A report generated by a model with database tools continues below. It deals with DNA of 64,000 nt from an uncultured bacterium. Lineage in GTDB: Bacteria > UBA8481. The DNA itself is not shown here. Where the stretch lies: contig CAZCME010000001.1 of the NCBI GenBank assembly GCA_964499705.1, positions 8,943 to 72,942 of the forward strand, given 5' to 3'.

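Follow-up and report, generated by a model that had tools for sequence, protein, structure and literature searches.

Spread and architecture of the hairpin family

Three or more copies of CACRAAGA form the octamer core that the window's hairpin (60830-60911) has in common with hairpins in at least 120 DNA stretches of other genomes (L008-L127), which we recovered by scanning species-representative genomes. Among the matches listed, the hosts span many bacterial phyla, cultured strains included, and one archaeal MAG. Arm order is fixed, with the purine arm lying 5' in 56 of the listed matches versus 4 with the opposite order, and stop codons are found near the listed hairpins. Searches of Rfam and a library of papers returned no description of this family. 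The arrangement of a stop/start overlap, a family hairpin and a presequence recurs at an unrelated gene pair, in which a dihydroorotase-like gene is followed by a HEAT-repeat/cyclophilin gene. Three orthologs of this gene pair retain the hairpin, with both sides changed in 5 of its 33 stem pairs.

In some genomes the family motif builds larger structures. Desulfococcaceae HSG8 (L125) carries tandem units of roughly 220 bp with one family hairpin within each, a Thermoanaerobaculales stretch (L077) has an array of about 20 CACGAAGA/CACTAAGG octamers, and in Chloroflexota REEB485 (L035/L085) triplets of CACGAAGA are regularly spaced about 37 nt apart.

Repeat tracts at orthologous junctions and within the window

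At some orthologous junctions between the giant gene and the PorV-like gene (L002, L004, L128, L006), other tracts with a 7-8-nt period occur right after the stop codon. An inverted partner is absent from these four tracts, three of which are translated within the n-region.

Locations of repeats in the window and at junctions in other genomes
Feature	Location	Description
Second long AT-rich palindrome	window 14999-15083	42-nt arms, 86% complementary, 1 nt apart
Intergenic repeats	window 26659-26701 and 26739-26792	between ORFs 25174-26658 (-) and 26737-28335 (+)
AAATCTG x5.7 (or ATCATAAATCTGAA x3.2)	window 28301-28345	tandem array
267-bp tandem repeat	window 58702-59383	2.1-2.4 copies, 72-77% identity; within giant gene
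GGATGAG x2.9	window 62279-62298	heptamer
GGATTGYG x4	L002:4012-4040	orthologous junction
TAATCACA x3	L004:967-990	orthologous junction
AATCCCRA x4	L128:558-588	orthologous junction
GATTCTTG/GGATTG	L006:2843-2895	orthologous junction
Family hairpins	L120:1801-1895, L132:1001-1095, L133:1001-1095	dihydroorotase-like–HEAT-repeat/cyclophilin junction

Within the window, the second palindrome lies between two minus-strand ORFs and is composed of CATTCGT/CAGTCGT-like units, with its T-rich arm first, the reverse of the arm order in the 60.8-kb element. Two elements make up the intergenic repeats: GAAGGAT x5.6 in tandem, and GAAATCC units that form a perfect inverted repeat with 16-nt arms (AAATCCGAAATCCTAA / TTAGGATTTCGGATTT). 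The AAATCTG array spans the end of ORF 26737-28335, ahead of the next plus-strand ORF. GGATGAG occupies the 21-nt gap from the PorV-like stop (62273) to the ATG of the M23-peptidase gene (62295), resembling reported heptamer arrays immediately upstream of start codons.

The PorV/PorQ-family protein and its giant neighbor

The PorV/PorQ-family protein (window 60816-62273) extends ∼150 residues (326-485) beyond the C-terminal end of the family profile, and Hydrogenedentota-like homologs (P0001-P0029) have the same long form, at 430-690 aa. The long-form gene is nearly always directly 3' of a very large gene with a terminal T9SS sorting domain (...KFMVIR); this gene order suggests that the two products are a dedicated cargo-partner pair. 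At the protein level, the 267-bp repeat of the giant gene matches a repeated domain roughly 89 aa long.

Comparison with a cold-shock protein consensus

The Bacillus subtilis cold-shock protein CspB has the in vitro consensus 5'-GTCTTTG/T-3' (PMC1904285). Judged from sequence, melting of the hairpin by a Csp is possible: the pyrimidine arm (GTCTTTGT)n, at window 60884-60907 and in the 3' arms of the family (L008-L127), reads as a tandem array of the CspB consensus, a likeness that is one of resemblance only.
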